DNA from: Argiope bruennichi | Taxonomy: Eukaryota | Assembly: GCF_947563725.1 (NCBI RefSeq) | Contig: NC_079163.1 | Location: 54,822,922-54,886,921, forward strand | Direction: 5' to 3' | Length of the DNA stretch: 64,000 nucleotides | Translations under genes and position numbers: made by a program | The notes under the pieces: generated by a model | What the model saw: the letters and a program-made list of their open reading frames with translations, nothing else | What the model was told of the DNA's origin: nothing | Database searches by the model: none | Part shown: positions 1,883 to 64,000 of the stretch, piece after piece | How positions within the stretch are numbered: position 1 is the first letter of the stretch | Layout: every line of letters starts with the position of its first letter

Positions 1883-2038
1883 TTCATATTTTGCACAGGC
1901 GTCCTTTATGGATTGACAAAAAGAAATATCTTCTGATAGCTCAAATGTATCTGAATAGCTGCCGCAAATCACATTCATTTTACAATCTTCACAAGCTTTC
2001 AGACACATCAGTCCCATCATGACACAAAGGGAATACAT
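1883..2038 (-). CDS. TROVE-gene exon (MYSLCVMMGLMCLKACEDCKMNVICGSYSDTFELSEDISFCQSIKDACAKYE), acceptor TTCCAG, donor GTTAGT.
   Basis: Matches Ro60 [34 protein letters not shown].... Phase 0/0. Confidence 0.75.
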
Positions 2039-23940: not shown

Positions 23941-23977
23941 TGAGCTCAAGTTCCCCAATGAGAAAAATCAGTAACGG

Positions 23978-24184
<207 letters not shown>

Positions 24185-31440: not shown

Positions 31441-33544
31441 AAAATGCTCAGAGAGATTAAAAAGCATAACAAACATAAAACACTGTGTATACAAAAGCAA
31501 TGCAGATATTATCCGTCTATTTGCCCAAGTGTGAAGGATAATATTAAATATAATGAACTACATTTTTTTAAAAATAATAATAGATGAATAAATAAAACTT
31601 TTTGAAATGTTTCTCTAAAAAGTCATGCATAGATTTTGATAGCAATAAAGAAGTGGAAATATATATATCAATGCTGCCAAATTAGATAGGGAAATTAGGG
31701 AGGGTAATAGCCAAATGCAGACAAAAGGAAATTGCCAAAGAACAGAAATCCAGGTAAAAAAGGCAAACTTCAGTTCATTTATTCAGCTGAAGATAATACG
31801 ATTTTCTAAGTTACTAAGCATTCACCAAAATGAGAAACAATGAAATAGACCTATAATAGGTGGGCGCACAAACTTGTAAAAGGACAAGATACAAAAGCTG
31901 TCTGTCGATGAAATATATAAAAATTTGCAAATATAGGATTTTATTAATACTAGGAAATGCAGAAATTATCTTTTTGGTTTGATGCCAGAAGTAAATATCG
32001 ATGTTGTAAAGGATATTTCTTTTATAAACAAAATTTGCACATCTAACAACGGTTTTTCATTTAACTACTATATATATGCCTATATATATATATATTATTA
32101 AGCCTTAACTCAACACCTAATGCAGGCAAATCATATTTATTTGTAACCATTTCTTAAAATTTGAGAAATAAGTCGCAACAGAAATTTTAATGTGAAATAA
32201 ATAATTCAGAAATTATTAAAAACTACCAGAAGCACTAAATAATCATCCAAATAATAAAAACTCGCTTATTAGAACAAATAATGAACAGCGATTGAGATTA
32301 AATATCATCTTTTTCTTCAAAACTGTTTTATACAAATGCTCATTACTGTTTCTGTCCAATTTGTTCCACCTTTTTCATTCATTGCACAAATTATGTTTTT
32401 TTGCAAAATCTTTTAGTTCCTTTTTATATTTCACTTTTCACTTAAAAATGGTTTCTGGATTATTTTTGAAATATAAGATTTTTTTAATTTTAAGTAAAAT
32501 TTGTATTAATATTTTTCCATTCACAGTTATTACTTCAAAACTTATCAATTGATAGTTATTATTTTGTAAATTACGAAAACCTTTGGGTGAGTCGGAGAAG
32601 CCATCGTATTATACACATCAGTTTAACACATATTTAAGATGATTATCTTGAAACAAGTGGCACAAAAATTTATATTCGGCCATTTTAATCTCTCCTATTG
32701 CCAGAATTAATTACTAAATTAAAATAACTTTTTATTCATCAATACTAAAAATTATTTTTAACATAAATTTTTTTTAAAAAAATCAAGAGAAATATTTAGG
32801 CATAAGAACAATAATTCAAAATCTGTCATTTGAGAAATGCTACAGACCAGAATAGTTTTAAAGTTTTCAACACATTTCCAATGCTTTTAAAATATTTTGT
32901 CACTAATCCGAATTGAAAATTTTGAAAACAATTACCATCTTTCTCTAATGCATCACTAAGTCAAATCTTAGTAAAATAGAATAAGCACTAAAGAATTTAG
33001 GAAAATCATTACACAATTAATCAATGATTTCAATAATAAACTTTAATGCAACATTAACAATAAAGGAAATTGCTATTCCATTTTATATGTCAGAATACTA
33101 CACTACATATATCAATACCATCAAATTAAGAAATAAATTGTTATTAATTAATTAAATGATTAACTAAAATTTAAGTATAGCACCAATTTTTCTACTAATC
33201 AAAAACAAGAAGCTGAATACTTTTCTCTAGTTTCTAAAATAATAATAATAATAATTAAATGAGGGTTAAATCTTTGTTTTCTGAGCGATTTCACATTTTC
33301 ATGATGCTTAGTAATAAATTTTTAGAGTATAATACTGCCATATATTAAGTGTATTCAAACTAAAAATAAAATTTAGCTCTAATAAATAAGTTATTTAGCC
33401 TGCACTAATTCAGTAATAAAATTTGACTTGATTTAAGTTAGAGCTATACAAGGACTATTTTGAGATGGACCAACTAATTTTGGCCTATTTCAAATAACAA
33501 GAATACCATTTGAGCCAAATCTCTCTCAAAACCTCCTAGGCAGC

Positions 33545-38046: not shown

Positions 38047-41000
38047 GATGACACTGAAATACAATAATAAATAGAAGAATCAGAATTTTAAAATATTAAA
38101 AATTATAATAAGAAATTCAGCTATAATTAGTTTATAAATTATATGAAACAAATTCTTGATGGAAAGCAAAATTTTTAGATTTCAATTTTAAAAAGATGAA
38201 AAAATTTGAAAAATTACCAGGCACATAAAGAAGTGTTACCATAATGGGATATCTTAAAACATGTTAACTCTTTTCTATTTGCAAGTGAAATAGGGGGGGG
38301 GGGCTATATATAAATGCACCTTAAAGTAAGGCTTTTTATTTTTAATTAAGAGTTTTTCAAGCTTCTTTAATCTATTCAAAAATAATTAAGAAAACAATTT
38401 TCACTGAAAAGATTCCATTAATTTAATTAAATTCCTAGCTTAAATAAATTTTCATAAGTTCATTAAATAAATTTTATTTCATTTTCCTTCTTTATATTTT
38501 CTAACTTTAGGATAACAAACTTTTTCGTAAAAAAGACTTTCAAAAATTTTTTACATACTGAAAAGAGATTTCAAGAGTAAATGTTCAAGAAGCCTAGATA
38601 CAGATAAATAGAGAAAAATGAATAATAGAATAACAAAGAAAGTAAATGCCATTAAAATTTAAACTATTATTATTATTATAAAAGTTTATTAAAGTTTAAT
38701 ATTAGAGTATTATTATTAAAGTTTTTTAACTATTATTATTAAAGTTTAAAGAGAGAGAAAAGTTTCATACCTTTTGCATGCTGAAATGGCTCTTGTTAAT
38801 AACCAAAGAACATATGTTTAGTAAGTTTACTAGTAAATAACAGTTTCAAAAATCTTACAAAGAGGATAGAAATAACTAAGTTTTTATGCTAAAAACAAGA
38901 GTGGATTAAGCCTCCAGGATGTTCTAAGACATTGCAAGTTTCAAGGTCCCAACTTTCAAAGATATTTTTTTTTTTTTTTTTTTTTTTTGTTTATTTTAAA
39001 TATATATTGATATAAGTAGTTTTATACAACAAAGTTTGACAAACTGGAACTGCAAATTAATTTCAAAAGAGTTGGTTTCATCACTTTGTGAATAAGAAAA
39101 TTTAAATTTAAATGTGATTTTTAAAAAAAATACAAAATCGATTGGATATTTATTTAAAAATAAAGAATCACATTTTTTTAGAATTAGAAAAAAAATAATA
39201 TAAAACTTACAGAGAGTAATTAATTCAGAATGTTACTAGAATAATGTTCTAAAATTTAAGTAATATTTGATTTAAATTTGTGTAAGTTTAACTATATGGC
39301 CTTTATCATTAAATAACAGCAAAAAAAAAAAATTTTCTTTTAATTCAAAACATCATAAAAAGTCTCAAGGGTTAGATGTTCCTTAAGTCTTTTGAGCCTT
39401 TAGACAATTAATTACCTACTTTAACTATTTAAAAATCCAGCTCTGACCAAGAAAAGACTTAAATCTGTCCTTTGTAATTAAAACATTAAAGGATGAAAAT
39501 GCAGCAATTTCTATCAATGTAAATACTATCACAAAAGATCACTTTATAAATAAATCTAGATTTAAATTTATACTCATTTATTTACTTCAATATTTATACA
39601 AGAAAAATCAGTGATTTTTTAGACAGAATTAAACAAATTTTGTAATGAAAAAAGCACTGTGCATTACTAAAAAAGTAGTACAATACATCAGTATAACCAC
39701 TCTTCATCTTCAATTAAAAAAGTATAATTCAGTTACAACTGAAAATAATAAATTCACATACATGAAAGCAAATTTCAAAAAATCCTGTCATACTACATAC
39801 TATTACTAAACTATTGTTCTAGATCAGATAACTGATTTATATGAGAAATATAAATTTTTTCTTCAAGTTACATTTTCAAACCAAGAAAATTTTCTCAGTC
39901 ATATTGAAAGAATCCAAAAGAATGAGATCCTGTAGTAATTTTTATGATTTGTAATTAGAGATTTTAGTTCTTGATTTATCTGCAGTGTTTGAAATTCCCT
40001 ATTTATTAAAAATAATTTTAAAATAAAACTTTTTTTTTTAATTTTAAAATTTTGGATTGCACTGATGCAACACATTAATGAAATCTTACTCTATTTCTTT
40101 ATAAAAAATAAATAAAATTTAATAAATAAATTGATAATAAAGTGATAAGTTTGTTTGAAACAAAGCCTTTAAACGTGATAACATTGATATAAGTAATTTT
40201 AATATATTATAAATAAATCAATATTTATTCAGAAATAACAAATTTTCAAAATGATATAGGCACTTTCATCCATCAGTAATAAAATAATACAAAAAGTTAA
40301 CATATAGTTAACAATACAATGCAGGTATATAAATAATCTTCAAATATAAAATTTGAAATAATAAAGGACTTAAAGCACACTTAAAATGAGGAGAAAAAAA
40401 GACTTTCATTATAGTAATACAGATGACAATGGTAATTGCTGCAAGGTCTGATTCTAAAGAATTAAATATAAAATCTTTCACAAACTATCAAAAATTTATT
40501 CAGCTGGAATATGTTCTCATAAATCAATAATAATGTCATTTTTAAAAATATAGACAACTGATATGCAGAGAAATCTAAACTAAAAAAATTAACTAATAAA
40601 GAATAAACATTATTAAATAAACTTTAGAAAGTCTTGGTATTCTTTTAAATGACTTAATATTTTTTACTATTTTACCATTTAAAAATTTATTACATGGATA
40701 GCTATTGAGGAGTTCTCTTAAGAGTATTTTATTAAAACTCTAAGACACAAACATAAATAAAAGCTGACTTAAGCAGTATGATAGTTTATAATATTGTTGC
40801 AAACACTGAATATCATAAAAACATTAAGCAGAAAACTTCAGCAACAAAGAGCCTTGAAAATATATAAATGCTGCATATATATAAAAATCACTATTTAAAA
40901 ATGAGTAAGAGAATTTTCACAAATAAGTATGAAATATCAAGGCAATGCCTCAATTTCTTATTCCTGTATTTCTTTGTGAAAAAAATGCTGGAATGAAGAT

Positions 41001-42104
41001 TTTATATATCTTCCTGAAATTAAAAATTCCTTAAATGAATAGATCAATGAAATAGTTGAAGATTGGACAACTACTCATTTTTAAATTAGTGAAAATGTAA
41101 TTTTAAATGACAACTTAATATTAATAAACATTGCTGTCATTTAAAATATTTAATGAAATGGACAGGCATTTTGCAACTATGAACAACAATTTATAAAATA
41201 ATTACAAACAGAAAATATTACATATGTTTTGTTTACAAAATAACAATTCTTCGGTTTAAACCGAGCAGTATAAACACTACAATTAACATTTTGACACACA
41301 GCAGCATATTTGAAATTTTATGGGGGGGGGGATTTAAACATTAAATTTAAAAACATTATTTTATTTCAATTTATTTATTCAACGGATTTGTTCTTCTATA
41401 TTTAAAAAACGCGAAAAAGATAAAAACAGAATTTTAAAAAATTCACCTGACCTTATAAATGTTGATAAGATGTTTCTGAAACAGTTTTAGAATAAAAATT
41501 CGATGCAATTTTTTCGTAAATATAATCTTTTAATGGCAATTTATTTGCAGATTTTATACAAAATAGCTACTAACAATAATTTAAAGATTAATTTAATTAC
41601 TGACCTATAAAACTTCTTCCTTTTTTCGTCTAATTAAAGAATCAAAACACACCGGCAAGGTGTTTCGTCTTGCATCACTCGGATGTAATCGAAAACAAAC
41701 AATCGGAAGCACCGCCCATGCTTGATGATAAAGCTACAAGATATACCCCAAAGGTCAATAAAAATATGCTTCTTTTTGTTGCTCTTTTATAATTACAATA
41801 AAATAATAGTCATTTTTTTTTTTTTTTAATATCATAGCACTGAATTTCCCCCAAGAAATTTTAGATACCCAAATAAAATAGACACAAAGATATCACAATA
41901 TACAAACTTCGTTATGAAAAAGTCATCGTTACAAGAAAACAAACTGAAGTCAATTATTTGTCTACAGAACCTGCGCGTTGTTGTTCCTCCTTCTTTATTT
42001 GGCTTCTGGCAGATTTTAAAATTTTTTGTGATATTCGAGTTTTGATTTTTGTGAACCCGGCACAAGCTAAGAATCCGTTCAGGAGCATACGCCGGAAAAC
42101 ACAC

Positions 42105-42128: not shown

Positions 42129-44279
42129 TTATTTTTCGAATAAGAATTATAAGCTTTGAACATTAAAAAAATGTATTTTTTATTTCCTATACTAAGTATT
42201 CATGTTATAATTTTACATTGAAATTATTTAATTTTAATATACTTTGAAATCAATATAAATTTCAAATAATCATTCTTTAACATTTTCATTTTATTTATGT
42301 TGTGATGCGTTATGCCCATGGCATTAAAGTTTGAATAAAAATAAAATATTGAATAAAAACTTCAAAATATGCCTTGCTTCACATTTTATCATTTCATGAC
42401 TTCAATATATATATAAAATAATAACAAATTTTAAATATAAAAAAAATATAGATTATTGTGAGGTGATCCTGCTTTACCTGCTCCATTCGTCCCATTATTT
42501 TGTTTTCAAAAATTAATTTCCAAAAGAAAACAGGCATAGTCTTATTTATTTATTGCCATATACTCATAATTTCAAATAAATAAATACTGTTATTTATCTT
42601 CAGTATACTATTCAGTTGATCATGATTTTGGCTCATGTAACATTGACAAACGGCAATATCATGGATAAGAATTTGCTATCTTTCGAAACTGCGTTACCTG
42701 TCGTAATTGAGGTAATTTTCTTTATCCTTATTTATTCTCTTTCGAAATACTGAAAGAGACATTCCCATTTCTAATCACAAAGTATTTCTGGAGACGGAAC
42801 AAGGAATAAAATATTAATGCTTATTGTGCTCACTAGATGGCTGCACTATTATAAAATGCTCCTACTGTAATTCGAAAATGATGCTTTATTCTGCTTCCTA
42901 TATCGTAGACTTTTTTTTAAAAAAAAAGATAATAACATTTCCGCATTTTTTTTAGCAGTAGGAAAAAGACAGAGATTTTCAAATTAAAATAGAATTATTC
43001 TGATATAACTGTTTAAATTTGATTAATTGTATGAGTTTGTCTCCTTAATTAATAATCGATTGCTAATCAATAATAATTCAATCGGTTATTATTTAAATTT
43101 TACTTATTCAAATAAACTCAGTGCATTGATTGAAATGTACTATTATTTCAAGGTTATGGATGAAACAAGCAAACGAAAAATTTTCAAAAGAGGAAATTTT
43201 GAATTTCGCCTTTTTTTATTCTCAAAAATTAAATTGATATTATATTTTGGCTTTAATTTCTCAATTCAATTAATGCAAGTGTAACAATGCAAAATGTAGC
43301 AAATGTGTAATAACCCATTAAGTTACAGTGGCGATCAATCATATTATTTATCTTAAAAATGCTCTGATTCAACGCAGTTCCAGTTCAAATAATTACTTCA
43401 TCACAACTCCTATATTTTCATAAAAACTAAACTTTATTTATTAATTTAACGGATGGTTTAAAAATGTAAATTGGTTCGTTACTATGAACACACTATTTTA
43501 TTATACTTACTAACTTAGTTCTTAAATCGGAAGTGTGCCTATCTCAATTGTGTGAAAATATATATATTATTATTAGTCCAGTTTATTAGAGTTTTTAAAA
43601 AATATGGAAATATGATAAAAGATTTGTTGTAAAAATCTCAAAGAGTAAATGAGAAAATAATAATAAATGTATTTACTTCCTAACAAAGATAGTGACAACC
43701 TTGTGTTTGAAAGTATTGTGTTTACGCGGGAGGGGGGGGGGGGTACTTTTATGTCATATTCTATACAATCTTAATACATTCAATAATTTGAAATAAATAA
43801 ATAAGAAGATTATTGTGCTTCTTTTCAAGTTTGCTCTTAATTTTTTGAGAATTTCTTTACAAATTATGGCTTTTAATCGATGGTAATACTTCAAAAATTT
43901 CAAACTAAGTATCAGGTTTATATATCGAGGAAAAAAAACATTTTAGTCTCACATCTTCGATATCATCAGTGAAATTTCAAAGGAATAATTTATCTTTACG
44001 TTTATATCGAAAAATTTATAAAGAGAGCTGTCAAAAACAGACTTTTCGGAACCACTCATTATGGGCGACTGATTCAAATGACTTTCAAGTAATCAAATTG
44101 ATAGTTTTAAAAATGAAGAACATCTCATCCCTGGATTGACACTATTGTAGTAAAAATAACAATTTAAATATATATTGAGTTAAAGCCCAGTAAGACAGCT
44201 TGAAATAAGAGAAATAAATGTCATGGAAGTCGCTACTGCGTGATCTATCATAGCTGCAAGAACTACAATCAGATTTTTT

Positions 44280-45480
44280 CAGTTTCAATCCAATAAGGTG
44301 TCAATACAAGTTTGTTTACTGTGGATTAGAGGAAGTAATATTGAGTAGGAACCAGCTCGCAATGTTGGGATTTGTAGCCGAATAACAAAATCACTAGACA
44401 CAAGTGTACACGCTGGTCCGGAAGTTGTTATCTGGCTTATAAGTTTCACCACAGATTCAACTCAAACATTTACTTTTTTTTTTCTTTGTGATAGTATTCT
44501 CAGGGAAAAAATCTATACTGTAAATAGCGAGAAACAAATTGAAAAGTATCAACATTGGAAGCCGGTTTTACTATAGGTGACATTAGGCAGTCGGTCACTG
44601 GCGCCATAACAATGGGGTATTTGCTCACTAAACGAAAATTTCGTTTCATCGACGGACATACGTCTCTTATAATAAATTTTAATACCAACATGTTTTGTAA
44701 CAAAAATGAACTAATCCCATCCTGCCTGAGCATCTGGAATGATCCAAATGATTGACGTTGCGATCGTAGCAGGTGGAACTGTGGTTGGTGTTCCAAAGGT
44801 CAGGACTGAAACAGTCGTATTCACAGCCGCTGTCCAACCCAACCTATGAGAAGTATGTCTAGTAATCGAAGTGAAGATAACTTGATCCCACAAACCAGGG
44901 ATAACTTGAAGTTCAAACCAGGGAAGCAAGAACCTGCTTACTTATACAACAGATTTTTTATACACGTTTTGGTGGTGAGATAGATACATCACAATCACAA
45001 GGAAGTTGTTCTCTCCAAAGTAGCATCCGATGAAATCTAAAAACAGTCGCCGCGATAGCACAGAATCAGGTTCTAAAGTTGAATTCGAAGGGCCATTACC
45101 GGCCTTGGCGCTACCTCTTTAATAGGCGTACGTCCCGTAATTAGAGTGGAAGTAACCATACTTCAACCCGCCCGAAGGCACACGGAAATGTTAAATGATC
45201 GGAACGCCGCGATAATATGGTTCATTCCTAAGGGCCACCATGATCACAATACAAACCCTTCCGCAGAAGCATGTCCCGTTGTCGTTAAGGGGTATCTAAC
45301 CCCTCATCTTTTCTGTACCCATCAACCCTGTTACAGGGAGCTTCTCATTACCATATCTGAGGTGCCCGCAGCAGGGATTTAGAATTTGAGTAACTCGACT
45401 CCTCAATTCTGCTTTTCCCACAGAGGGAGTCTTATTATACAGCAGTCTCTCATTCGTGTACTGGGGAAGCATACCTTGTG
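44280..45480. other. Compositionally distinct GC-richer block of unknown origin. No recognisable ORF or rRNA motif. It contains a 12-bp imperfect inverted repeat GCCGAATAACAA...TTGTTATCTGGC.
   Basis: GC content is clearly above the flanks. The ORFs on both strands show no homology I can recognise. Confidence 0.3.
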
Positions 45481-45769
45481 GGGGTTAAATATAAAGTATA
45501 AATTAATAATGTTTGAAATGCAAGCAATTTAATAACTGATTTTTTAAAAACTTTTTTGGCTAATTAACATATTTCGTTAACTATAAACAAAAATTATGCC
45601 AAATGGGTATATTTGGTTATGTAATTGTAAGGAGTAAATAAAATATCTAAATTGGTCAGTAGTTCATACAATTTTGATTAATTAAGGGCGCTAGATATCT
45701 TTGCAACGGCCTTGGTAACAGATATGTAATAGATATAAGTGCACAAATAATCTCATATTGAAGTTTAAT

Positions 45770-45965
45770 TTACTTATATCTTGTCTTAAAAAACATGCAG
45801 GTTATTTCGGGACAGACCTCATAATTTTGGGTAGTGGTCAGATGATCAGGATGACCCTTAAACCAAGCGCCATCCTCACCAAATTTCCAAGCCATATCAG
45901 CAGGCTCACATCTAAAGGCACTTTGTCTAACGTTGTACAGACATCAACAACAACAAAAAAAAAGT
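45770..45965. mobile_element. Second, truncated copy of the same SINE-like body (GGGACAGACCTCATAATTTTGGGTAGTGGTCAGATGATCAGGATGACCC...). It ends in an A-rich tract.
   Basis: Alignable to 61020-61180. It lacks the tRNA-like part. Confidence 0.5.
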
Positions 45966-46689
45966 GGGACAGCTCTGTGACTTTGTTATTTATTATCGCA
46001 TCTTCGCATAATTAATTGGTGTCAATAAAAATTACTCGAGGAAATAATTTTATTTAGGTCGATTAACTGATTAATCAAGTTAATCAAAGTAATCTATTAA
46101 TTAATATTTAGCCTTTTCCCCATTAAAAAATCCGGTGATGGTTTTTTTTTTTTTCACATTATTCTATATGTGCATTAAATTTCATTCCAAAATTCGCAGA
46201 AGTCCTTACGGTATAGTTAAATTTTTGTTTAAAATTCTGCCTGTAATGTGCAAACCCATTAAAGATAATATTTTAAGTAAATCTCAACTTGTTAAACTCA
46301 AAAAAAAAAAAAAAAAAAAAAAAAAAAGGAATTTTTTTAAGCTTCGACATTTCCATTTAATTAAACCTCATTCAGAGTGATCTTTAACATGAACATTCAT
46401 TTCCAAATTCCAACTAAAATATGATTTTTTTTTGTTGGAAATTTAACCATTTCCTTATTTTAAAAATATTTTAGAATCAATCTTTAATGTCGATTCAACC
46501 CTAAAAACATTTCAGAAACACCAAGAAATTTTTATTGTGAATGACATACATTGATTCCAATGTTTTTAAATAAAATGTAACCTCATTGGTAAGAAACTAA
46601 TGCGAGTAATGGCATTTTAAACCATTTAGGCTTTGTTTTAAAGGTGAAATTCTATTTTCAGTTCGAAGGGATTGTTAATCGGATATTGA

Positions 46690-51683: not shown

Positions 51684-52379
51684 ACGATCATTTCAAAAAT
51701 ACTTTTAAAAAACATGCCATAAATACAACTAATCAATTTTCATAGTTTTTATTATTATTATTATTATTTTTAATTTCTTGGTTTTGAAAATATGCACCTA
51801 TGGCAATAACACGAGGTTTAAAGGAACGAGGTTGATTGTAAATAAATAAATAAAAATTGTAGTTTATCGAGAACTGATCATAAATTAGTGCAGTACTGAA
51901 ATAAATAGATAAACTTCTCAAAAATTTCTTTTGCTATGGGTAGACTGTTATTGCTTCAAAATTGCTTTAAAAAATAAAATTGTTTAGATTACTGTTGGCA
52001 GTCGTTATGACTTTTTAGGCATTTTTATATAACACAGCAACAATAAGTCATAAGATATCTTTTGTCAAAATAAGCTTTAAGATATCTTTTGGTATTTGAG
52101 ATTAATAAAATGTAACCATTGATTTCCAGAAAAGAAGAATTGAATTAAATAATCTAAATTAGTTTTTATAAAGAATAAATTAGGACCTTTTTTCAAAAAA
52201 ATTGCGAGGAGTTTTTAAGAAATTAGCTTTACAAGACATAATTTATAATTTATAATATTAAACAAACTGTTATTTTATCTTAATATTATTGTCATAATAA
52301 AAGTATTGTCACCCTCCCTGCATATTTATTAATTACTACTCAATTTCTAATATATACATTCCATCTGTGCAAAATAAAT

Positions 52380-52607
52380 AGTAATAACAAAAAAACTTGG
52401 GACAGGTGGCAAGAAGACAAGCTGACGAGCGTCGTATACCATAAACGGCGAACCCCGAGGCCATTCAAGTGATTTCCTGACTATCGTAGGTGGAAACAGT
52501 GGTTTCGACCCACTTTTTCCTTAGTCTGAACTTGATTTCCAATCAGCAGCTGAGCAGAAAACGACCCCACAGTTGTTTTTCTCCCCGACGATGATAGTGT
52601 AAATATT
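52380..52607 (+). promoter_or_regulatory. Probable 5' UTR and core promoter of the agrin-like gene. It is a locally GC-richer segment immediately upstream of the ATG.
   Basis: Composition shifts relative to the surrounding AT-rich DNA. There is a short upstream ATG-TAA uORF. No TATA box was confidently identified. Confidence 0.35.
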
Positions 52608-53040
52608 GTGGTCAATCGTGTCAAGATGGGTTCATATCACCTGTGTTTGTTATTATTAGGGATAATCGTTTTCCAGCTGAGTTTGGTTGCCGCACGTCGC
52701 AGACGTTTTAGAGAATGCCCAGAAGAAAGATTGAAAGTGAGGGAAAACATGGCAGATGTAGTACTTACCGGCACTGTCAAACGACTATACGGTGGCCAAG
52801 ATGGTTTGTACAGTGGTGAAGTGCTGGTGAAGAGAGTGGTAAAAGGTGGTCATTTGAGACCTGGTGAATCGCTTCTTGTGGAAGGTTTCGGCAATTCTGA
52901 TATTTGTACCAGTAAAGTTATTGCGAGAGATTCGAAAATATTTCTTCTAAGCCAATTAGAAACCGGGCGTTTCAGACTTAACTCAAGCATGGTTCGAATC
53001 AATGCACCGAATTTGGATAAAATAACTGCGACTGTAAAAG
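52608..53040 (+). CDS. First coding exon of an agrin-like gene, secreted LN-type N-terminus. It encodes a signal peptide (MVNRVKMGSYHLCLLLLGIIVFQLSLVAA) plus an NtA domain, and ends in a phase-1 GGT|GTAAGG donor.
   Basis: CPEERLKVRENMADVVLTGTV / VEGFGNSDICTSKV / IFLL / LNSSMVRINAPNL aligns over its full length to chick and human agrin NtA (CPERELQRREEEANVVLTGTV...ISGFGDPLICDNQV...IFFV...LNSSLMRITLRNL). A hydrophobic signal peptide precedes it. A consensus donor ends the exon exactly where the NtA domain ends. Confidence 0.85.
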
Positions 53041-53265
53041 GTAAGGAAATTTTTTATTACTCAAAATAATGCAGGGTATTATAATACTTTGCAATATGTA
53101 TTAAACTCTAAAATTGTAATATTTATTATTAATTAATCATCATCATCATTATCATTAACTAACGGAGCAGCAAGCAAAATAAAATACTATTAAGAGATAA
53201 GAAACATGAAACAAAGAAGTTGTAATTAAAAATGTCCTCAAATTTAAAATGCATATGTTTTTTTT

Positions 53266-53267
<2 letters not shown>

Positions 53268-53357
<90 letters not shown>
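53268..53357. repeat. (TA)n microsatellite, about 45 units, located in intron 1 of the agrin-like gene about 228 bp past the donor.
   Basis: Directly visible. Confidence 0.97.
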
Positions 53358-53358
<1 letters not shown>

Positions 53359-56300
53359 CAGCCATTGGCTGAAAGAATATTTTTTGTTAACATTTTTTTT
53401 CTTTTTGAAATCACTGGACAAATTGCCGTTTTATTCAATATATTATTATAAGCATTTATTTGGCAAATCAGAGTAAGTAACTAACTGGAAATATATGTAA
53501 CATTTATAAGAAACATTTTCTCTTGTTTGATATAAGCACATTTTTATACCCTTCTTTTATTTGCCTTCATGTTGTATCGTTTGAATTACAACACAGCAAA
53601 AAAGTTTCGGTGTTACAAAAAGATTCATTAATTTTATACAATGATTTTAATTTATTAAAACACTGAAAAATTGTTTTTTTATTACTTGCAAAAACATTGT
53701 TGCGTATTGATAAAAATTAAAAGAAATCTACGTGAAACATTTGAATGCAGAATCCTTTCAATATGTACGAAAAAATGATTAATAGTGGCATATATATATT
53801 AATTATTTTCAATTCATATTAAGAACACATTTTTTCTATGAAAGAAGAATGTACGATAATGTCTGCATACATTCGTTATTATAATTTACAATGTAATAAA
53901 AATGTAACTACATTTGATCGAGCATAGCTAAAAGAATTTCATAAAATTTTAAATGAGAACATTTCCACAGGTTGATTTAACATTGAAAAGTGACTACAAT
54001 TATTATAATATTAACACAAAAAATTTCTGTGTTATTATTTTAAAACCGAATTTTCTTATTTACAAGAATATTATAGAAAAAATATTTTTTATTATTTTTT
54101 AATAAATAAAATATATCAACTTCTGTATGATTGTTGGTTTAATTTTCATGAACGATAGATTAATCTTTGAAACATAAATTCTAGCAGAATTTGATGGGAA
54201 TAAAATATTTTTGATGCTATGCACTTTAGTCACTCGTACTTATCTGCTTTATGTTTGAATCAGACTAGATAGAAAGCGTTTAAAGCATTAGAACGAATAC
54301 TTGTATATATGTGAAGCAAATAATGCCCTTACTTCCCTTAAGATGTTTTTGACTCTATATTCTTCGAATTTGAAACAATTTTTTTCCCTTTATTTTTGTA
54401 GTTTGTATTTTTTATCTTTATATGATGCATCGTTTTGGTTTTTTTTTTTTTTCATAAATAAAATTGCAGAATTGTAAATATAATATTGTTCAGTCATAAA
54501 TAAAATGACGTCTATGAAGAACTCTAACATAACTAGAAATTTTAATTGATTTCATTCGAATTCGAATTATATTAGAGATTAGAATTTAGATCAGGAGGGA
54601 GAGAGAACCAGATTTGGCTCAGTCGTGCCAATCACAAGGTAAATATTAAAATTCCATTGTGTTTTAACAACGGAAGAGCCTTTTTGATGTCAATTAATAG
54701 CAGTTTGTCTGACTTTTTAATTTACAAGCACGGAACTTTCATAGAATTTCATTTATTTGGATTCTCAATTCGTCATACTATTAATTTTATTCTGAAACCT
54801 GCTGTTTTATAAAAGAAAAACAGCTGGGTAGCAAGCTGAAGTAATTTTCGCAGTGTGTGGAAATGCGAATCACCACCCTCCCTAAAAGGAAGAAAGATAA
54901 TTTAAACATTTTCGCAATATCAAATCAGTATGTGCGTTGAAGTTGCATTTCGTAAATTAATTCCCGACATGCCATACTTTTATGTGCACTAGAAATATTC
55001 AGTTAGAAATATTGCGATGGTTTTGATCATTTTTTTATATATATTTCGTATAATTCCTATCTCTTATTAAAAGACTCATTGAGTTATTTTTCTTTATTAA
55101 GAAAATATAAGCGTATAAATTAGGGAAAAAATAAAGACCGTTGAAATTTCTTTTGAAATGAAGATGTTTAACATAACTGTTTTAAATATAATTTATTATG
55201 CGATCAACTAATGCTGTCACTTGATGCATGTTAAAAAGACCGCTTAATTTCGGAATCCGGTGCGGCTCTTGCAGAAGGAGAAATGACAAGACGTCACTGT
55301 ATAGTAAAAGATGGCATGCTATCGTAAAGCTTGCACAGATGACGTATACCAATAAGCTGTGATGACACCTGAATTAGGCCCATTTTAATGACTGGATTCC
55401 ATTTTCCTATTAGGCTGCATAGATTTAATCCAAATTACTTTCACATATTTCAAAAAATTAAACTAACAATAAAATCACTAAGATTTTCAATTTATGGTAG
55501 CTCATAAAAAATTTCAAATAGAGTAATTTAAAGTGATGTCACAGTTGAATAACAATGCAATTGCAAACATCATGTATCTAAATGTTATATTGTGTAACAG
55601 TGTGCCAGAGCCTATCATTCCATATTTTAAAATGTGCTTATATTTTAATGGAAAGGATGAATTTTAGACAACGTTCCTGATTTTCTAAAATGGTTTTAAT
55701 TCTTATTACGCACTGTTATAATACGAAGAAAAAAGTGAATACCTTAAGAAAAAGTTTTTCAAATTTCCACCAAAAGTCTTGGGTTATTAAAAACGTAAGC
55801 TGTAAAATTCAAAATTAGTTTTAAACTTACATTTTACTGTGCATTGCATTCTTTTAAGAATTGCATTTTTCCCGATAATGGATGTCTGTATTTACTATAA
55901 TATAAAGAGAATTTAATCAATATTCCAACTGAAATTAATTGAACACCATGTATTTGAGAGTAATGAAGCCACTTAATGGTTTCAGTATTAATTTAGCTTT
56001 CATCAAAAATAACCCCTATTATCTTCGAAAGAAAACCAAAAACATTGTTTAGTAGCACTTCGAGTTAAATTAATCCAATAAACTTTACTTTGGATGAAGA
56101 AATCTGTGTTTATATGCCTTCCAGAACGGCTGTTTTTATTTTGATTTCTTAGGTTTACGTGTCGTTATTGAATTGAAAAAATACGACGTGTTATTGAATC
56201 TGATAAAATATAAATAATGAGTAAAGAATCTGCTAAAATTTAAATAATGAGTTTTAATGATGAGTAAAGAATTTTCTGGAACCATATATGGTTCTTTCAT

Positions 56301-57349
56301 GAATCACAAAATATTCCAAAACCTTAAAAGTAGAAAAATAAAGCTGTTAGTGGTTGTCCTAACTTCAAGCTGTCATTCTAGAATCTCTCTCTTTTTTTTC
56401 TTATTTAAATAATTTTTTGTTCTAACTCGTGTTTTTTGTCGACGGTTTGAAGCATTTAACTTGTTCAATTTTTGACAGTATTTGGAAAGGGTTTTTTTTT
56501 TTGGGGGGGGGGTATTTGCATTCAAATGATTTAAAATACAAATAAATAAATCCTAAAAAAATATTATGCTTTTTTATTACTTTTTTGATTTATTGAAATA
56601 AAACTCAATGGAAATGAAATTCTTGAGAAACATAAGATAGTGGTCGAATTTTCTCCTTGGCCATATCACCTTAAAACTATATTCCGCGAAATTTTAAATC
56701 TGGAAGTGAAAATCAAAACTGAAAAAAAAAAGTCTTTTAAACAATTGAAGAGGATAATAACAATCTGTTTTTGTATTTTTTGCAACACCGACTTAATCCT
56801 CCCAATTTTAGTTTGAAGTAAAAGGGGCTGTATTACACTCACGCACCTTATAATAAATTCGAAAAATATATCAATATTAAATCATCAAAATTTTGTCTGC
56901 ACTGAAGCAAAGTTATTAAACAGATAACATTTAAGAGTTAAAAAAATGTTAATTAGTTAAAAGCCGGGTAGGCACAAGAGACATGGCGCTTCAAAAAGGA
57001 ACTAATGGAAGTGGTCTCCCAAAATCTTTCTCGCATACTCTTCAATAAAAATGTTATCAATATTTTGCATGACATCGGCGTACAATAGTTACGAAATATT
57101 AATCTTTGGCGTGAATTTAACCCTTTTACTGAATTTTTCGTATGATCCTTGGCGTAAGTTTTGGCGATTAATTCCTGGTATGCAGTCAAATGTATCCAAA
57201 AATGGAATCTGGTTTTCAGACGTGTTCTTCCCACGCAATTGAAACAAAATTTGACGTAAAATTACACTTGAAGTCAAAAAACACGTAACAAAATTGATAT
57301 GTAAAAGTCATTGCCTTTTTTGAGTGATCTTGTTTGCATATTTCTAAAA

Positions 57350-57700
57350 GTACAGACAGTTCAACCCCTTATTGGATTTTGTTCAAAATTTGATAGGCTC
57401 AGTATTAAAGATGTTAAATCTGTGCATCAAATTCTATATATCTAGCTCTCTTCCTTTTGTAGCAATCGTACTAACTGATATTCGAACAGCCGGGCAGACA
57501 GAATTCCTCTTAACGGTATTTGCACAAAATTGGATAGAAATCTACATATTTGGCTTTAAGCATGTATACCAAATTTCATACGTCTAGCTGAAAGCATTTT
57601 TGAGTTACCTTTGTCACAGACAGACAGACGGACGGACATTTTCCAAAAATATTTTTTCGGGCTCTAAAACGTGGATTTTCTTCAAAATCTCGAATTCGAA
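57350..57700 (+). repeat. Copy 3 of the dimeric interspersed repeat family. It ends in a (GACA)n-like tract CACAGACAGACAGACGGACGGACA.
   Basis: Shares GGATTTTGTTCAAAATTTGAT, GTATACCAAATTTCATACGTCTAGC and the ACAGACAGAC ends with copy 1. Confidence 0.55.
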
Positions 57701-57914
57701 TTATACTTTGTATACGTGACAGTAAAAAAAGGTAAAAAAAGAGTGGTTGATCTAATTTTTCCTTCAAATATCCAGTGGAATTTTTCAAAAATAAATTTGA
57801 AAAACGCTCAGGAATAGTTACTCCTTCTAATAAAATAATTATATTTACTTTATACTTTATATTTTAAATAACAGTCATTACATCGTCTATATTAATAATT
57901 CTTTCTTCCTTTAG

Positions 57915-57950
57915 GCATCCCTTACAGAAGAAGACCACCGATAAATGACG
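57915..57950 (+). CDS. Candidate 36-nt microexon (G-IPYRRRPPIND-G), phase 1 in and phase 1 out. It is compatible with the agrin exon-1 donor as an NtA-to-follistatin linker.
   Basis: A strong acceptor (TTCTTTCTTCCTTTAG) and donor (GTAAAT) flank a 36-nt open segment in the right phase. There is no homology support. Confidence 0.25.
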
Positions 57951-60900
57951 GTAAATATATTTATTACTAATTTTTTTCGCCTTTGTAATAAATTTCTATG
58001 TCTAATTTATTTAGCTGTTTTCCTTTTAGTTTCCAACTTTTTGTAATTTAGAAATAAAACTCATAATTGAAAATTTTAAAGAAAAGTTTTGAATTGATTT
58101 GTCCATACATCATTTCAAGCTTTTCATGGCATTATTGCTACCCCTATCAAAAGTTTAATTTATTATATATTTCTTTTGAAAGAAATTGCTTTGTAGTCTG
58201 CTTTTCCTTTAATTTATATGAACCCTTTTTCGAATAAATGACGTTAACATAAAATTTTATGGATTTTAACTGCACGATTCTTTGAAATTAAGAGAATTTT
58301 ATTATTTTGCTCATTTCTGATAAACTATCAGACATTTAAATTTGTTAGCTTGATAGAAATTCTGATAAATTATTAAAAATATTTAAGATATCCGACTAAT
58401 TTCAGTGGCTATTAATAAAAAAAAATTTAATCCTTATAAGATGTTTTTTATTAATATAAGGATAAAATGCTGAATAAAAGAGAAATTATTTAAATATACC
58501 TATAGCTTTTTAAGAAAAGGCATATTTTGATGTAAATTTTAGCATTTATTTACAAAAACTAAGATTGTTCCAGAGAAATTGTTTTTTTTTACAATTTTTC
58601 ATTTTTCTTTAGAACATTACATGCGTGACATATCTTGGAGTGTAACTAACTATTATGTAAGAATTATATTCAAAAATAAAATTTTTGTGTGTAATATATG
58701 ATATTATCAACGAAATTCTGAAATTTTTTCAACAATATTTACATTAAACAATAAAGACATCATTGGAAACAGAAACATGCCCATTTTTTGAAATTGCCAA
58801 AAAATAAAAATGCGAATTTTCATCCAAATGCATATTTTCAACCTAGCCAGGTATCTTAAATAAAATTTTATTTCGATATACAGTTATATACTGGGAAAAA
58901 TAATAACTTGCAACAATCATGGTTTGCCATCAGATCGTTAATAGGTACTATCAGTTCAGGAATGTCCAAAAACCCTGTTCTAAGATCAAACAAAAAATTG
59001 ATATCGTAACATTCCATCTAACTGGAAACGAGGTAGTTAATGAGCATGTAGAAATTGATGCTACATCAGCAACAAAGTTGTTTTCAGTTCCTGGATAGCA
59101 GATAGCAATCAGCAGTTTCCCAAGACAATAATTTTCTAAGCACATTCAATAAAGTTTAGACTGATTTATCAATCCATCACATGATATCCTCATTTTCAAG
59201 ATAATCATAAGCAAAATAAGTTTTACGTGATTAACATGCTTTGCTTCAGATTTTAAACTAACTGCTACAGAAAAATTGCAACTATTTCTTTTTCAGTCAA
59301 ATATTGAATTGTAGGAGGAACTATTCTTTATATTAATATTTTTTTGATCTTTTAATGTGAGATTTGGACACTCCTCCTCTATTGTTTGATTACTGAAAAA
59401 CGGCAGGGCTCACGGAGAGCATGAACTCGATGGTTCTCAGCCTTCAGACATTGCTTACGTTTGGAAAAAGTGTTATTACAATTCAAATACTTAACAAATG
59501 TATTATTGGTGATCATTAGTATTTGTATTATACTAAATTTCATAATAATACATTCATAAATTTTTCAGAAGAATTGCTGTAAGTAATTTTTTAAATAGTG
59601 ATTTTTTTTTTTTGAAATTTTTGTTATTATTTTAAGTTATAAAAAAAGTAAGCAAAATTTCAATGTTTTTGGGTGCTAATTTTTGAAAATGCTATCACAG
59701 AAAGATAATTTCCGCTATTTTAGAAAAGTTGAAAATATTTTTAAATATGAGTTGCAACAGCAGTTCTCATGATTGAATTTAAAATCAAGCCTGCTTTATT
59801 GTTACTTACATATTTTATCGTTATTTTATTATACTTGCATATTTCATTGTTATAAAATTTAAAGAGTCTGTACCTTTTAATTTGTTATTTATTTATACGA
59901 TATAATTAAACAAAGTGATTAAATTTGATATGTACTGACTGCAATATGACTAGATTCCGTATGTAATTTCTAATTATCCAATAAATGCACTCATTGTAAC
60001 AATCATTAGAATCATAATTGACTTTAATGACTAAAAACTTATATATATTAAGCATATTTTTTCCCCCGTGAATGAATCTTTTAATAACATAAAATAAGTA
60101 GTATTTCAGAATTATATTTGGCAAACTATGCATTTTTTATATAGATTAATAATTTAGAAAATTCCTTTGACTTGTTTTCTTTATTTTCTATATATAGCTA
60201 GTTAATTTCATAAAATGGTAATTTTGTTTCATTTCAAGATAAAAAAACATCTGCAGCATTTAATTTATTCATCAATTATGCCTTATAATTAGATGAAATA
60301 GGAATTTTATATTTAGCTGATTAATGTGCAATCATTGCAATTTAAACTAAATTCATTCGTGAACAAAACGGTAAATGATCGTTATTAAATTTCAAATCTG
60401 ATAACAGTCAAATGTAAGGAACTAAATCATTGACTTCATTAGTTGCCAATCCTTCAGTACATTTTCGTTCTGTTAATGGATCAAAATTTATAGGTAATAG
60501 ATTTTTGTGCATTTATTTTCTATTCATATTTTTAAATTTATTTCGTAGTTGTTAGAAGCAATTGATGCTTTCGGTATACTAAAAATCAAATTAATTCAAT
60601 AACTGTATTAAACACGGTTGCATTACGAAATTGAAATTGATACAATTAGTTAAATGATAAACTAGTAATCGTCGAAGGAGTAACTAAATCATATATACGT
60701 AGGTTTAACTGCAAATTGTTATTTCAATCTTACCGCTCCTTTTCTTTAAGACTGAACAAAGGGGAACGGAATTGCTATGGAATATCCCTGGTACCGTTTT
60801 ATGTATTTATGTCTTTGTGTACATATTCTTAATGTGTTAAACAGTGAAACGTAGGTAATGTTTAAAATTGTGAATGGTTCAGGATAGTAACGTATTCAAA

Positions 60901-60999
60901 AAATTTGCATAAACACACAAATATCGGTTTAATTAATGCATGGAAGTAATATTTCCACATATACATCATTAGAGCTTTCATGTTTAGGTTTTAGTTATA

Positions 61000-61290
61000 T
61001 TAACGTCCCGTTTGAAGCAACACTAGGGATATTGTGGGACGGACCTCGTAATTTTGAACCGCGGTCAGATGACGAGGACAACACCTGAGCTGGCACCCCC
61101 TCTCCACACCAGCGGGAGGACGTTTGGTCAGGACAGATTTATCGTGCAACAGACCCCCTTGCACGACGGTTCTTAGGTTGAATTGGGTCTCGAACCTGAA
61201 ACCCTCCGGTTCTGAAGCCGAGACCTTACCACGAGGCCACCGCGGCCCTATCAGAGCTTTTATATCAGTGCCTCGTGATTTTCGAAAAAT
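61000..61290 (-). mobile_element. SINE-like element with a tRNA-derived head. Its minus-strand 5' end is at about 61262 (GGGCCGCGGTGGCCTCGTGGTAAGGTCTCGGCTTCAGAACCGGAGGGTTTCAGGTTCGAGACCC).
   Basis: An acceptor-stem, D-loop-like and T-loop-like (GGTTCGAGACCC) arrangement is followed by a body homologous to 45770-45965. Confidence 0.55.
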
Positions 61291-64000
61291 CTGAGGATTT
61301 CACTGACACGTTGCATCATTTGCAATTAAAAGCGTTATGGAATAATAAAATTAATAATAATGATATTTTGAATTAGGGAAGATACTGTGGTGAAATATCC
61401 GCTCTTCCTCTAATATCTGCAAGCCGTTCTCCACTTTAGACAGAGTTCCATGCTGACTGATTGACCGTAAGATGAACTGATTTCAAATCGAATTTATATT
61501 ATTAGCACTATTTTCATTCAAACAGGCTATAAAACTGTACATTAATCTCAAAAATTCCATTTATGTCCATGTAAATAATATGAAAATGCGTGAAATGTAG
61601 TCTATTTTTATTGCAGACACAAATATAACTTGAAATTACATAATATACTCATTATTTAGTATATTTGTATTGAGTTTACCATAATAAATTGATGTATTAA
61701 TTCTTTCTATCAATATAAATTCATCCAGTTATCTGGATTATAGTTGTGAATAAGGTTTATCAATTGTAGATCTTGTAACACTGATACAGTTGTAAATTAA
61801 TGTCACAGTACAGTTATAATTTAAAGTGCAATGATAATTAAGTATAATAGTCATAAATTAATGTCTCCGTGAATATAAATTCATCCATCCTCCGAATCAG
61901 AGTGTAAATGATATCTCTTCAGCTTCTTCCTAATAGAATTTGTATTCCTGGGCTAGACATAAATAACCATTTTGATAGTTTCTAACATTGTAAATTTATC
62001 TGGTTTTGGAACAATATCTAGTTTTTCCAGAAAAGTCATAAATGTGTCGGTTTCCGTAATTTTTCGATCCTATAAGTGTAATTATTTTTATTTATTTACT
62101 ATTTTTATTTATTTATTTTTTATGGGCGTAAATGCGAACGGTCATAAGTCGCATATGTCATAAATTGAGGAAAATCGTATGCACCGAATCAGATAGAAGT
62201 GACGTGAATTCTGTAGATAAGCAGTGGTGTTAAGATGTTTTGTTTCTGCTTTGACATTCAAAAAATTAAAATTAAAAGAAATTGCAAGAAGTTGTCAAAT
62301 GTATATTTTCAAATAGAACTGACAGATCATTTTCAAATTTTTTATATGTTTATGAGATATCATCTTTTCGCTTGTTGTGTTATTTTCTGTGTTTTTACCA
62401 TTCAGATGCAGAAATATATTGAATGTTAAATTCAATTTTATTTGTTAAAAACCTTCGTGAATAAGAAATTGCGGTAATTATCAATTTGTAGAAGTAATTC
62501 ATGATTCATTTAGTGGTTGTACAGTATATTATCTTGCTAAGACAATATTTATTCTTTTTCAAGTGACATATTTATCTGCAATTATCTTTAAAGTTTTTGT
62601 AACCTATTTATAAAACTGCGATAGCAAACCATTTTGCATTATTTTGAACAATATTTATTTAAAGTAACAATTTTCTAAAAATAGAAGGCTGATAAAATTC
62701 CTACTCGTGCCAATGGTTCGCTTCAAAATAACATCATTTTCACTTCCTTTCGTTACATTTATGCTAGTCTGCAGGAGAGCACTTCCCTTAAAGCGTTCGA
62801 ATTGAGTTCCTTAGCGAAAAGTAGAATGTAGGTCCCCTAGGGCCACTAGGGGCACTTAAAAGGTGTTAAAAACAAGTGAGAGTTTTTTTCATTCATATAT
62901 CGTGTCGTGTGGTGATATGAATGAACTTTCAAAGTGGGTATTCTGGTGAAATGCATACTGAAACTTAAGAAAAGGACAACAACAACAACAAAAAAAGTCA
63001 TTTAAAAGGAGGTTTGCTAGAACAATATGGTTACAAAAAAAAAAAAAAAAAGAGTTAAAATTCTTGTGAAAGATTTCACATCTTACTTGATTCTAATCAA
63101 GTTTATTACTTACATTGCACATTAATATAGGTTTGCATCCTTTTCATTTTAGTCTCTTAAATTAATTCTGATTAATTCAGAGATTTATTGTTAAAATAAT
63201 TTGCTTATTACATTTTGGAATAGAAGTAAGAAAGTTTTTATAAGGAAATTTAATTGGGTTGTTGTAATTTTTAGATTATTTCAATTTAATTAAAAATTGA
63301 TTCTAAAAATTAGTTTTTTTTCCCATTATTTTTCTCACATTCTTTGCACATATTACCTTGCAAAGGTAATTCTTTATATTACCTTGCACATTTACATCGA
63401 ATTTTACAATTACATTTTAAAAATAAAAGATCGCGCTTAAATTTATTTAAATTATTAAAATATGATCCAAAAGATTAAACAAATTGTGAATATATTTGAT
63501 AATACTGTAAAGTTATCTTCTTTTAGTCGTAATGTATATGAAAGACGAGTAAAATTCTTTGTGATAGTTTTATATTATCTTTCTAAATCTTTACTAGCCA
63601 CCTACGGCTACCAGCTGTGCATTCGCCTTATTTATAGTATTAAAAGCTTCAAGATTAATGAGCTACAACTTATCACAACAAAAAAAAAATATTATATTAA
63701 ATTTTGTTAATTTAATAAATATAAAGCATTCTGAGCCGTAATAATTATGTTAGAAATGTGAGAAGATAAATTGATGAAATACACGAGAAATAAAGGAGCG
63801 ATATCGACTACTCTTGAGGGCTTCATTGAGAGCTAAGGGAACACTGCTGACGCGTCTGGGAAGGAAGGGGTTTCTTGAACCATCATATAAAATATAAATC
63901 AGCCGAATCAGATTTACAATTATATAAATATATATATTAACATTCAAGTTAAGCTTAATTAAATTTCCTAATTTTTAGCTCAATTCAACACATATTAACT

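Follow-up and report, generated by a model that had tools for sequence, protein, structure and literature searches.

The closest described relatives of the locus studied here are the agrins, and in particular the N-terminal part of chicken agrin. In that protein the laminin-binding epitope lies in H3, a helix within the NtA domain, with Leu142 and Val149 packing on the laminin coiled coil; Cys2 is paired with Cys74, and the recombinant unit formed by the NtA and the first follistatin-like (FS) domain binds laminin dose-dependently and does not inhibit matrix metalloproteinases (PMC3439447). Invertebrate agrins, an ancestral N-terminal laminin-binding domain, and the absence or loss of agrin in Drosophila have also been described (PMC2874008). 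Here we analyse a window of 64,000 nucleotides from the spider Argiope bruennichi (NCBI RefSeq assembly GCF_947563725.1, contig NC_079163.1, positions 54,822,922 to 54,886,921 of the forward strand; coordinates below are positions within this window unless another sequence is named), in which one exon on the plus strand encodes an agrin-type NtA domain. It is very probable that this exon opens a small gene of three coding exons, the product of which would be a secreted protein of about 225 residues that carries the NtA domain and one FS domain and then ends. Such a gene would be a paralog of agrin that has been kept across the Chelicerata beside the long agrin.

The coding part of exon 1 (52626-53040, +) runs from Met1 to the first base of codon 139, and its translation, which begins MGSYHLCLLLLGIIVFQLSLVAA, is 95% identical to residues 1-139 of the Larinioides protein P0001. 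The frame is open from the ATG at 52626 up to 53040, i.e. for 138 codons plus one base; the 144 codons counted in the initial annotation are obtained from the in-frame GTG at 52608, but not from the ATG. Residues 1-23 (52626-52694, +) are hydrophobic, with Kyte-Doolittle means over 11 residues of up to 3.4 and the residues V-A-A ahead of the predicted cut, and are signal-peptide-like as judged by hydropathy. Between the predicted cleavage site and the first cysteine, Cys31, sit the seven residues RRRRFRE, of which the RRRR motif occupies residues 24-27 (52695-52706, +). The NtA domain itself extends from Cys31 to Lys138 (52716-53039, +). Pfam profile PF03146 matched residues 31-130 over its full length (profile positions 1-115 of 115) with 73.4 bits and E=1.7e-20, against a gathering score of 25.1 bits. 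The PDB sequence matches of the exon were restricted to agrin NtA (1PXU, 3I70, 1JC7, 1JB3 and the human full-length agrin 8S9P), with E-values of about 3e-9. The exon closes at the domain boundary, two residues past the Val that is conserved in NtA helix 3, and is followed by the donor G/GTAAGG, with its GT at 53041-53042. A signal peptide, a complete NtA domain in a single exon and a GT donor at the domain boundary had all been proposed in the initial annotation and are borne out by these results, and the motifs quoted there (CPE..L..RE..A.VVLTGTV, GFG...IC, IF and LNSS..RI) are all present.

The three-dimensional prediction is in line with this assignment. In an AlphaFold2 model of the 95%-identical ortholog, made with a 17-sequence alignment (mean predicted local distance difference test score 83.6), a beta-barrel (strands 45-118) is predicted to be followed by a helix (127-138) and a compact Cys-rich C-terminal domain. 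The best Foldseek matches of the model were the chicken NtA structures 1pxu, 3i70 and 1jc7 (template modelling (TM) score 0.77, root mean square deviation (rmsd) 2.2-2.3 A, E=1e-9); the FS domains of FSTL1, follistatin and WFIKKN2 came next, and TIMP/NTR modules were distant matches. The predicted helix corresponds to NtA helix H3 and is encoded by 53004-53039 (+). It contains Leu130 (53013-53015, +) and Val137 (53034-53036, +), which align with Leu142 (mature Leu117) and Val149 (mature Val124) of chicken agrin, respectively. Both residues are invariant in the spider alignment, and Leu130 is retained in at least 90% of 17 orthologs. Cys31 and Cys94, invariant in the 17 orthologs, align to the Cys2-Cys74 disulfide pair of chicken. 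Judged by profile, predicted fold, disulfide pair and laminin-contact residues taken together, the exon in the window is a bona fide NtA domain.

The N-TIMP and NTR modules share the beta-barrel of the oligonucleotide/oligosaccharide-binding (OB) type with the spider domain and gave the weaker of the fold matches. NtA differs from TIMP in having one disulfide and no free N-terminal Cys, and the spider domain contains only two Cys, the first of which is preceded by seven residues. The features that mark TIMP-type inhibitors, a free N-terminal Cys1 and two or more disulfides, are not found in the spider NtA domain.

Downstream of exon 1 the window contains one further coding exon. Intron 1 (53041-57914, +; GT...AG, 4874 bases, phase 1) ends with the acceptor tcctttAG, its AG at 57913-57914, and is followed by a micro-exon of 36 bases (57915-57950, +; phase 1 to phase 1), which encodes the linker (G)IPYRRRPPIND between the NtA and the follistatin domain (sequence context: tcctttAG/GC ATC CCT TAC AGA AGA AGA CCA CCG ATA AAT GAC G/GTAAAT). 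Its translation is identical in 12 of 12 positions to residues 139-150 of Larinioides P0001 (tblastn), and an equivalent micro-exon is found in the Larinioides locus L001 (29919-29954), in Parasteatoda and in Oedothorax. The splice junction 53040/57915 agrees with the RNA-derived contig L003 (Logan SRR21676480, 1370 nucleotides), which is free of introns and has the exon joins exactly in place; its unbroken open reading frame of 223 residues ends with a TGA, after which follows an AT-rich, stop-filled 3' untranslated region of 660 nucleotides. The same structure of three coding exons is seen in the genomes of relatives. In Larinioides L001 the coding exons lie at 10001-10415, about 29919-29954 and 40987-41214, the last with a TAA stop inside it, and in Parasteatoda (L002) they all fall within 14.9 kb, again with the stop in exon 3.

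Intron 2 begins at 57951 and its 5' part (57951-64000, +) runs to the end of the window. No match to ortholog residues 150-225 was found by tblastn downstream of 57950 in the window, and a hunt for exon 3 in the whole window with 18 relatives as queries (tblastn, word size 2, E up to 10) returned only exon 1 and the micro-exon. Weak recurrent matches at 1915-1995 (+) and 13480-13623 (-) were set aside as chance, as they contain stops and lack the Cys pattern. We expect exon 3, with the follistatin domain and the stop, some 6-7 kb past the window end, because the segment 61439-63320 of the window is colinear with L001 30869-34277 and the start of exon 3 in L001, at 40987, is another 6.7 kb away.

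The family to which this gene belongs was delineated by a homolog search over 5.8 billion proteins, in which the matches were arachnid relatives only. The top match was the protein of Larinioides sclopetarius (95% identity), and further relatives were found in Caerostris, Trichonephila, Stegodyphus, Oedothorax, Uloborus, Parasteatoda and Liphistius, the last presumably an early-branching spider. All ten full-length relatives measure 220-232 residues and have the same layout, i.e. a signal peptide, RRRR, the NtA domain, the linker (G/D)xPYRRRPxI, one follistatin-like domain and the C-terminus. Fragments of 108-153 residues that also occur in the databases (e.g. P0002 and P0004) are translations of exon 1 that run on into the intron. 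The mature spider protein is basic (isoelectric point 9.3), with Arg/Lys clusters in the N-terminus, the linker and the FS domain. The FS domain of the orthologs, whose encoding exon lies beyond the window, has the 10-Cys pattern of FOLN plus Kazal with all ten Cys invariant, and it scores 38-47 bits with the Kazal_2 profile (PF07648, cut-off 22.8) and also above the cut-off of Kazal_1 (PF00050). An exhaustive search with the NtA profile alone (1.84 billion representatives, 291 matches at E<=1e-3, plus cluster look-ups) extended the short NtA-FS architecture to the horseshoe crabs Limulus (XP_013778652, 230 residues) and Tachypleus, the soft tick Ornithodoros (225 residues), the mite Halotydeus and the pseudoscorpion Cordylochernes. 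For Tachypleus, RefSeq lists an agrin-like isoform X2 of 160 residues (P0168) and an isoform X1 of 230 residues, and a second locus encodes a protein of 230 residues, which suggests that alternative splicing or termination may occur and that a duplicate copy may exist in the horseshoe crab lineage.

Between Argiope and Larinioides 10% of the bases of exon 1 and 5% of its residues differ. By the Nei-Gojobori method this corresponds to a synonymous divergence (dS) of 0.43 and a non-synonymous divergence (dN) of 0.034. The resulting dN/dS of 0.08 indicates that the short gene is under strong purifying selection.

This conservation bears on the question whether the product could be a venom or secretory protease inhibitor of the Kazal type, acting in venom or saliva instead of the matrix, in which the NtA-like N-terminal domain would be incidental. 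Such a role is suggested by the UniRef name of the Liphistius ortholog, U21-Liphistoxin-Lth1a_1; going by this name, that sequence probably comes from a venom-gland data set. It is also suggested by the C-terminal domain, which exceeds the Pfam cut-offs of Kazal_1 and Kazal_2 and matches small Kazal inhibitors in the PDB. Nevertheless, we consider a toxin improbable. Toxins are expected to diversify rapidly, whereas the spider proteins are 66-95% identical to each other at the low dN/dS given above, and there is a single locus for the short gene per species in the three spider genomes examined. The protein is moreover found in horseshoe crabs and mites, which are not venomous. The loop spacing of the orthologs, C-x7-C, is Kazal-like, but their residue at the Kazal P1 position varies (E, H, W and R), and the domain has the 10-Cys layout of follistatin. 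A literature search on the name Liphistoxin gave nothing functional, and a search on agrin-like proteins in spider venom glands returned nothing on a short NtA-FS protein.

Less probable still is that the exon is an alternative first exon, of the LN type, of a full-length agrin, with some eight FS domains, the laminin-EGF and EGF domains and three LamG domains still to come beyond the end of the window. It is true that the agrins of vertebrates and molluscs start in this way, with the NtA exon often far upstream of the rest; spider introns are large (5 to >19 kb in the short gene), and exon 3 lies beyond the window and is hence not directly readable. The orthologous transcripts and gene models, however, end after the first FS domain (FS1), and the gene that follows downstream in Parasteatoda and Oedothorax lies 6-7 kb away on the opposite strand. 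The RNA contig of the ortholog and these neighbours on the opposite strand imply that the product is a short protein and not the start of one of 2000 residues. The EGF and LamG domains are absent from all 17 short orthologs and reside in a separate long gene of spiders, represented by Oedothorax P0200 (1554 residues, encoded over 145 kb), Nephila P0225 and Uloborus P0226. In two spiders this long gene is on another chromosome or scaffold than the short one: in Uloborus on a contig of 172.9 Mb versus one of 139.2 Mb, and in Oedothorax on chromosome CM033272.1 versus scaffold JAFNEN010000097.1. A distinct NtA exon is moreover present on the chromosome of the long agrin, as described below. The initial annotation was thus right that the gene continues past the end of the window, but the large multi-exon agrin with Kazal repeats, LamG and EGF domains that it foresaw is unsupported, as the relatives stop after one FS domain. 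As the orthologs have exactly one FS domain and lack both the FS array and the EGF/LamG half, we do not regard the predicted spider protein as agrin proper.

That the locus is a decaying, functionless fragment of a partial agrin duplication is hardly credible: it does resemble a truncated copy of a larger gene, and several database models are fragments that read into the intron (such as the two named above), but the frame is intact, the splice sites are canonical, dN/dS stays at 0.08 with dS at 0.43, the same architecture is found from horseshoe crabs to spiders, and a spliced mRNA contig exists.

The relation of the short gene to agrin can be traced in some detail. In one block of 71.6 bits, the Larinioides ortholog and human agrin residues 30-243 are colinear (NtA, linker and FS1), and the other FS domains of human agrin match the ortholog only secondarily. 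Long agrins that bear an NtA domain are found in oyster, abalone, chiton, a nemertean, Ptychodera, Trichinella, Haemonchus and the vertebrates; the oyster protein (1490 residues) consists of NtA, five Kazal domains, laminin-EGF, EGF and three LamG domains. The initial annotation had considered an NtA-bearing agrin noteworthy in an invertebrate genome, which it is not, since invertebrate agrins and the ancestral laminin-binding domain were on record, as was the lack of agrin in Drosophila to which it correctly referred (PMC2874008). With respect to the nematodes, the agrin models P0227 of Haemonchus and P0078 of Trichinella carry an NtA domain. As AGR-1 of Caenorhabditis elegans has been reported to be without NtA (PMC1939731), the loss of the domain would then be lineage-specific within the nematodes.

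The long agrins of arthropods (Laodelphax, Cryptotermes, Apis and Tribolium among the insects; Oedothorax, Nephila and Uloborus among the spiders) share with the short protein a nearly identical motif at the linker and the start of FS1 (PYRRRPPINDEPCEKK in the spider short gene versus YKPRPPIIEEPCEKT in insect long agrin). They differ from it in having many FS, laminin-EGF, EGF and LamG domains, in their size (1500-2300 residues), in a gene span of >100 kb and in their location at other loci, and their NtA domain is only about 50% identical to that in the window. What precedes the linker and FS1 in insects is a divergent NtA in Laodelphax and a type-II transmembrane N-terminus in Cryptotermes, Photinus and Onthophagus. 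Alternative NtA and transmembrane first exons, known from vertebrates, thus seem to exist in arthropods too. In the insect cluster representatives P0195, P0198 and P0202 the transmembrane segment runs straight into the linker/FS1 sequence YKPRPP-IEEPCEK, and pre-computed Pfam lists miss the divergent NtA that the long agrins of Laodelphax (P0196) and of the barnacle Pollicipes (P0201) carry.

A second type of NtA exon (type B; ...YRGVVKVKRVVKGD...DTRIFLV...) is present in Trichonephila, Nephila, Araneus, Argiope, Caerostris, Oedothorax and, outside the spiders, in a trombidiid mite. Its identity to the exon in the window is about 50%, and the two have the same start (signal peptide, RRRR, Cys) and the same exon end, VKG. 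In Oedothorax it is located at about 26.26 Mb on CM033272.1 (L004 10001-10399, P0251), the chromosome of the long gene, and the locus tags are close to each other (JTE90_005567, and 005560 for the long gene). The spider long-agrin models start abruptly within an FS domain, which suggests that their 5' exons are missing. From these positions, and not from transcripts, we infer that type B probably serves the long agrin gene as a 5' exon that the models have left unjoined; if so, many spider long-agrin models are truncated at the 5' end. The type B proteins P0021, P0024, P0025 and P0248-P0251 have been annotated as separate tiny 'NtA domain-containing' genes.

A gene fission, in which the arthropod long agrins would have been left without NtA, was considered on the basis of the pre-computed Pfam lists and rejected, as several of the representatives turned out to be transmembrane isoforms or 5'-truncated models. 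It is further contradicted by the divergent NtA of Laodelphax and Pollicipes and by the type B exon that spiders carry on the chromosome of the long agrin, so that a partial duplication fits better. The sequence comparisons thus make it most likely that the short gene is a paralog of agrin that arose by an ancient duplication of the first three coding exons in the chelicerate ancestor, and on the most economical view the long gene retained an NtA exon of its own after the duplication.

Several points weigh against this picture of a separate short paralog. Exon 3 and the stop lie outside the window, and the short architecture of the Argiope gene is read from its orthologs, with 95% identity and a colinear intron as the connection. 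The link between type B and the long agrin rests on the shared chromosome, on the nearby locus tags in one species, and on models that start in the middle of an FS domain. A rough neighbour-joining tree of the NtA domain, based on about 110 columns, does not resolve the age of the duplication. Finally, laminin binding, ligand binding and competition with the long agrin are properties that we infer for every member of the family.

When compared with characterized proteins, the predicted short protein is closest to the LN isoform of vertebrate agrin (human 8S9P; chicken 1JB3, 1PXU and 3I70). The two share the order of signal peptide, NtA, short linker and FS1, the predicted fold (TM score 0.77, rmsd 2.2 A), the Cys2-Cys74 pair and the laminin-contact Leu and Val of helix 3. 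The spider protein differs in that it would end after FS1, without further FS, laminin-EGF, SEA, EGF or LamG domains, and consequently without the dystroglycan, Lrp4/MuSK and heparan-sulfate-bearing parts. Furthermore, two of its NtA loops are about seven residues shorter, the basic RRRRFRE extension precedes its first Cys, and Cys123 of chicken NtA is absent from it. The recombinant chicken NtA-FS protein, which is stable, secreted and laminin-binding in vitro (PMC3439447), consists of exactly the two-domain unit of the spider gene. Chicken NtA-FS and mini-agrin are laboratory constructs, however, whereas the spider protein would be a natural gene product that does without the receptor-binding half. 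In mini-agrin, C-terminal LG domains are added as a bridge to dystroglycan. The C-terminal domain of the orthologs matches the FS domains of FSTL1 and WFIKKN2 and the Fs1 domain of follistatin in sequence as well as in predicted fold, with the 10-Cys arrangement of FOLN plus Kazal in common. None of those proteins has an NtA laminin anchor, and their ligand specificity is not transferable.

A possible mode of action can be sketched from these features. The signal peptide would direct the protein to secretion. The NtA domain is predicted to take the OB/TIMP-like fold, with the two hydrophobic laminin-contact residues kept in its C-terminal helix, and may dock on the coiled coil of the laminin gamma-chain in basement membranes. 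A single basic FS domain would thereby be displayed in the basement membrane, where it could bind ligands of the bone morphogenetic protein (BMP) or transforming growth factor beta (TGF-beta) type or heparan sulfate, or could inhibit a serine protease. Since the short protein would occupy the laminin site of agrin, it could also compete with the long agrin. We tentatively propose that the stand-alone NtA-FS gene encodes a natural soluble regulator of the basement membrane, acting either as a decoy in competition with the long agrin for a single docking site on laminin or as a laminin-tethered trap for BMP/TGF-beta-family ligands, although we consider this rather less likely than not to be its actual role; the gene has been retained, probably over several hundred million years, in the clade that spans horseshoe crabs and spiders. 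If the proposal is true, evolution has turned the laminin-binding half of a 'mini-agrin' into a separate signalling component.

For annotation, the comparison implies that the locus should be treated as a complete small gene and be neither lengthened into a giant agrin model nor fused with one. In the databases the short proteins already go by the names "agrin" or "agrin-like" (NCBI, for instance, names the Parasteatoda tepidariorum ortholog P0012 "agrin"), and the many spider fragments that carry these names belong to two different NtA loci. The domains and the mechanism hold no surprise in themselves, as both domains and the NtA-FS unit have been well characterised in vertebrates. The interest lies in the laminin-anchoring module of agrin as an independent and strongly constrained gene across the Chelicerata, i.e. 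a simple system, provided by nature, in which the poorly understood N-terminal part of agrin stands by itself and which is accessible to RNA interference in Parasteatoda. No paper on a stand-alone NtA-FS gene was found; the literature coverage was incomplete, and this is to be read as absence of evidence only.

Upstream of the coding sequence the 5' flank is conserved as well. The segment 52386-52625 (+) is identical to Larinioides L001 9761-10000 in 208 of 240 bases. This identity of 87% compares with 69% (207/300) for the first 300 bases of intron 1, and the segment probably comprises the 5' untranslated region and the core promoter. The surrounding block 52068-53073 was aligned by blastn with 82% identity to Larinioides. 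A scan of 52000-52700 for sigma-70 promoters and terminators was set aside, being meaningless for a eukaryotic gene. At the other end of the gene, the last approximately 40 coding bases and the start of the 3' untranslated region are tandemly triplicated in Larinioides (L001 41175-41900, about 258 bases per unit). Following an AG, the copies encode NIYKQHEGLCSRAE/..SR; they could be alternative terminal exons or a mere tandem repeat of the 3' untranslated region.

The window as a whole is AT-rich (about 24-38% G+C in blocks of 2 kb) and clearly eukaryotic in character, with long AT-rich stretches and microsatellites. A Pfam scan of the other long open frames in the window returned retrotransposon remnants only, and no neighbouring host gene was recognised in the 52 kb that lie upstream of the NtA exon. 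At 29285-31193 (+) lies the frame-shifted remnant of a retrotransposon without long terminal repeats (non-LTR), in which reverse transcriptase (RVT_1, E=3e-17 and 4e-6) and RNase H (E=3e-5) are recognised in successive shifted frames. A local peak in G+C content (0.38, versus about 0.27 around it) at 44000-46000 contains several frames of 70-100 codons on both strands, for which neither a Pfam match nor a match to the related spider loci was found. An interspersed repeat at 61003-61299 (-) contains a pseudo-open reading frame (...RWPRGKVSASEPEGFRFETQF...GVERGCQLRCCPRHLTAVQNYEVRP...) without a Pfam match. The same repeat occurs in L001 at 6964-7098, 30401-30516 and 32603-32709 and, when read through from the intron, makes up the spurious C-termini of P0025 (Trichonephila clavipes) and P0248 (Araneus ventricosus). 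Long microsatellites of the types (GT/CA)n and (TA)n are found at about 23950-24200 and about 53265-53360, where a (TA)n tract lies in intron 1 just past the NtA exon.

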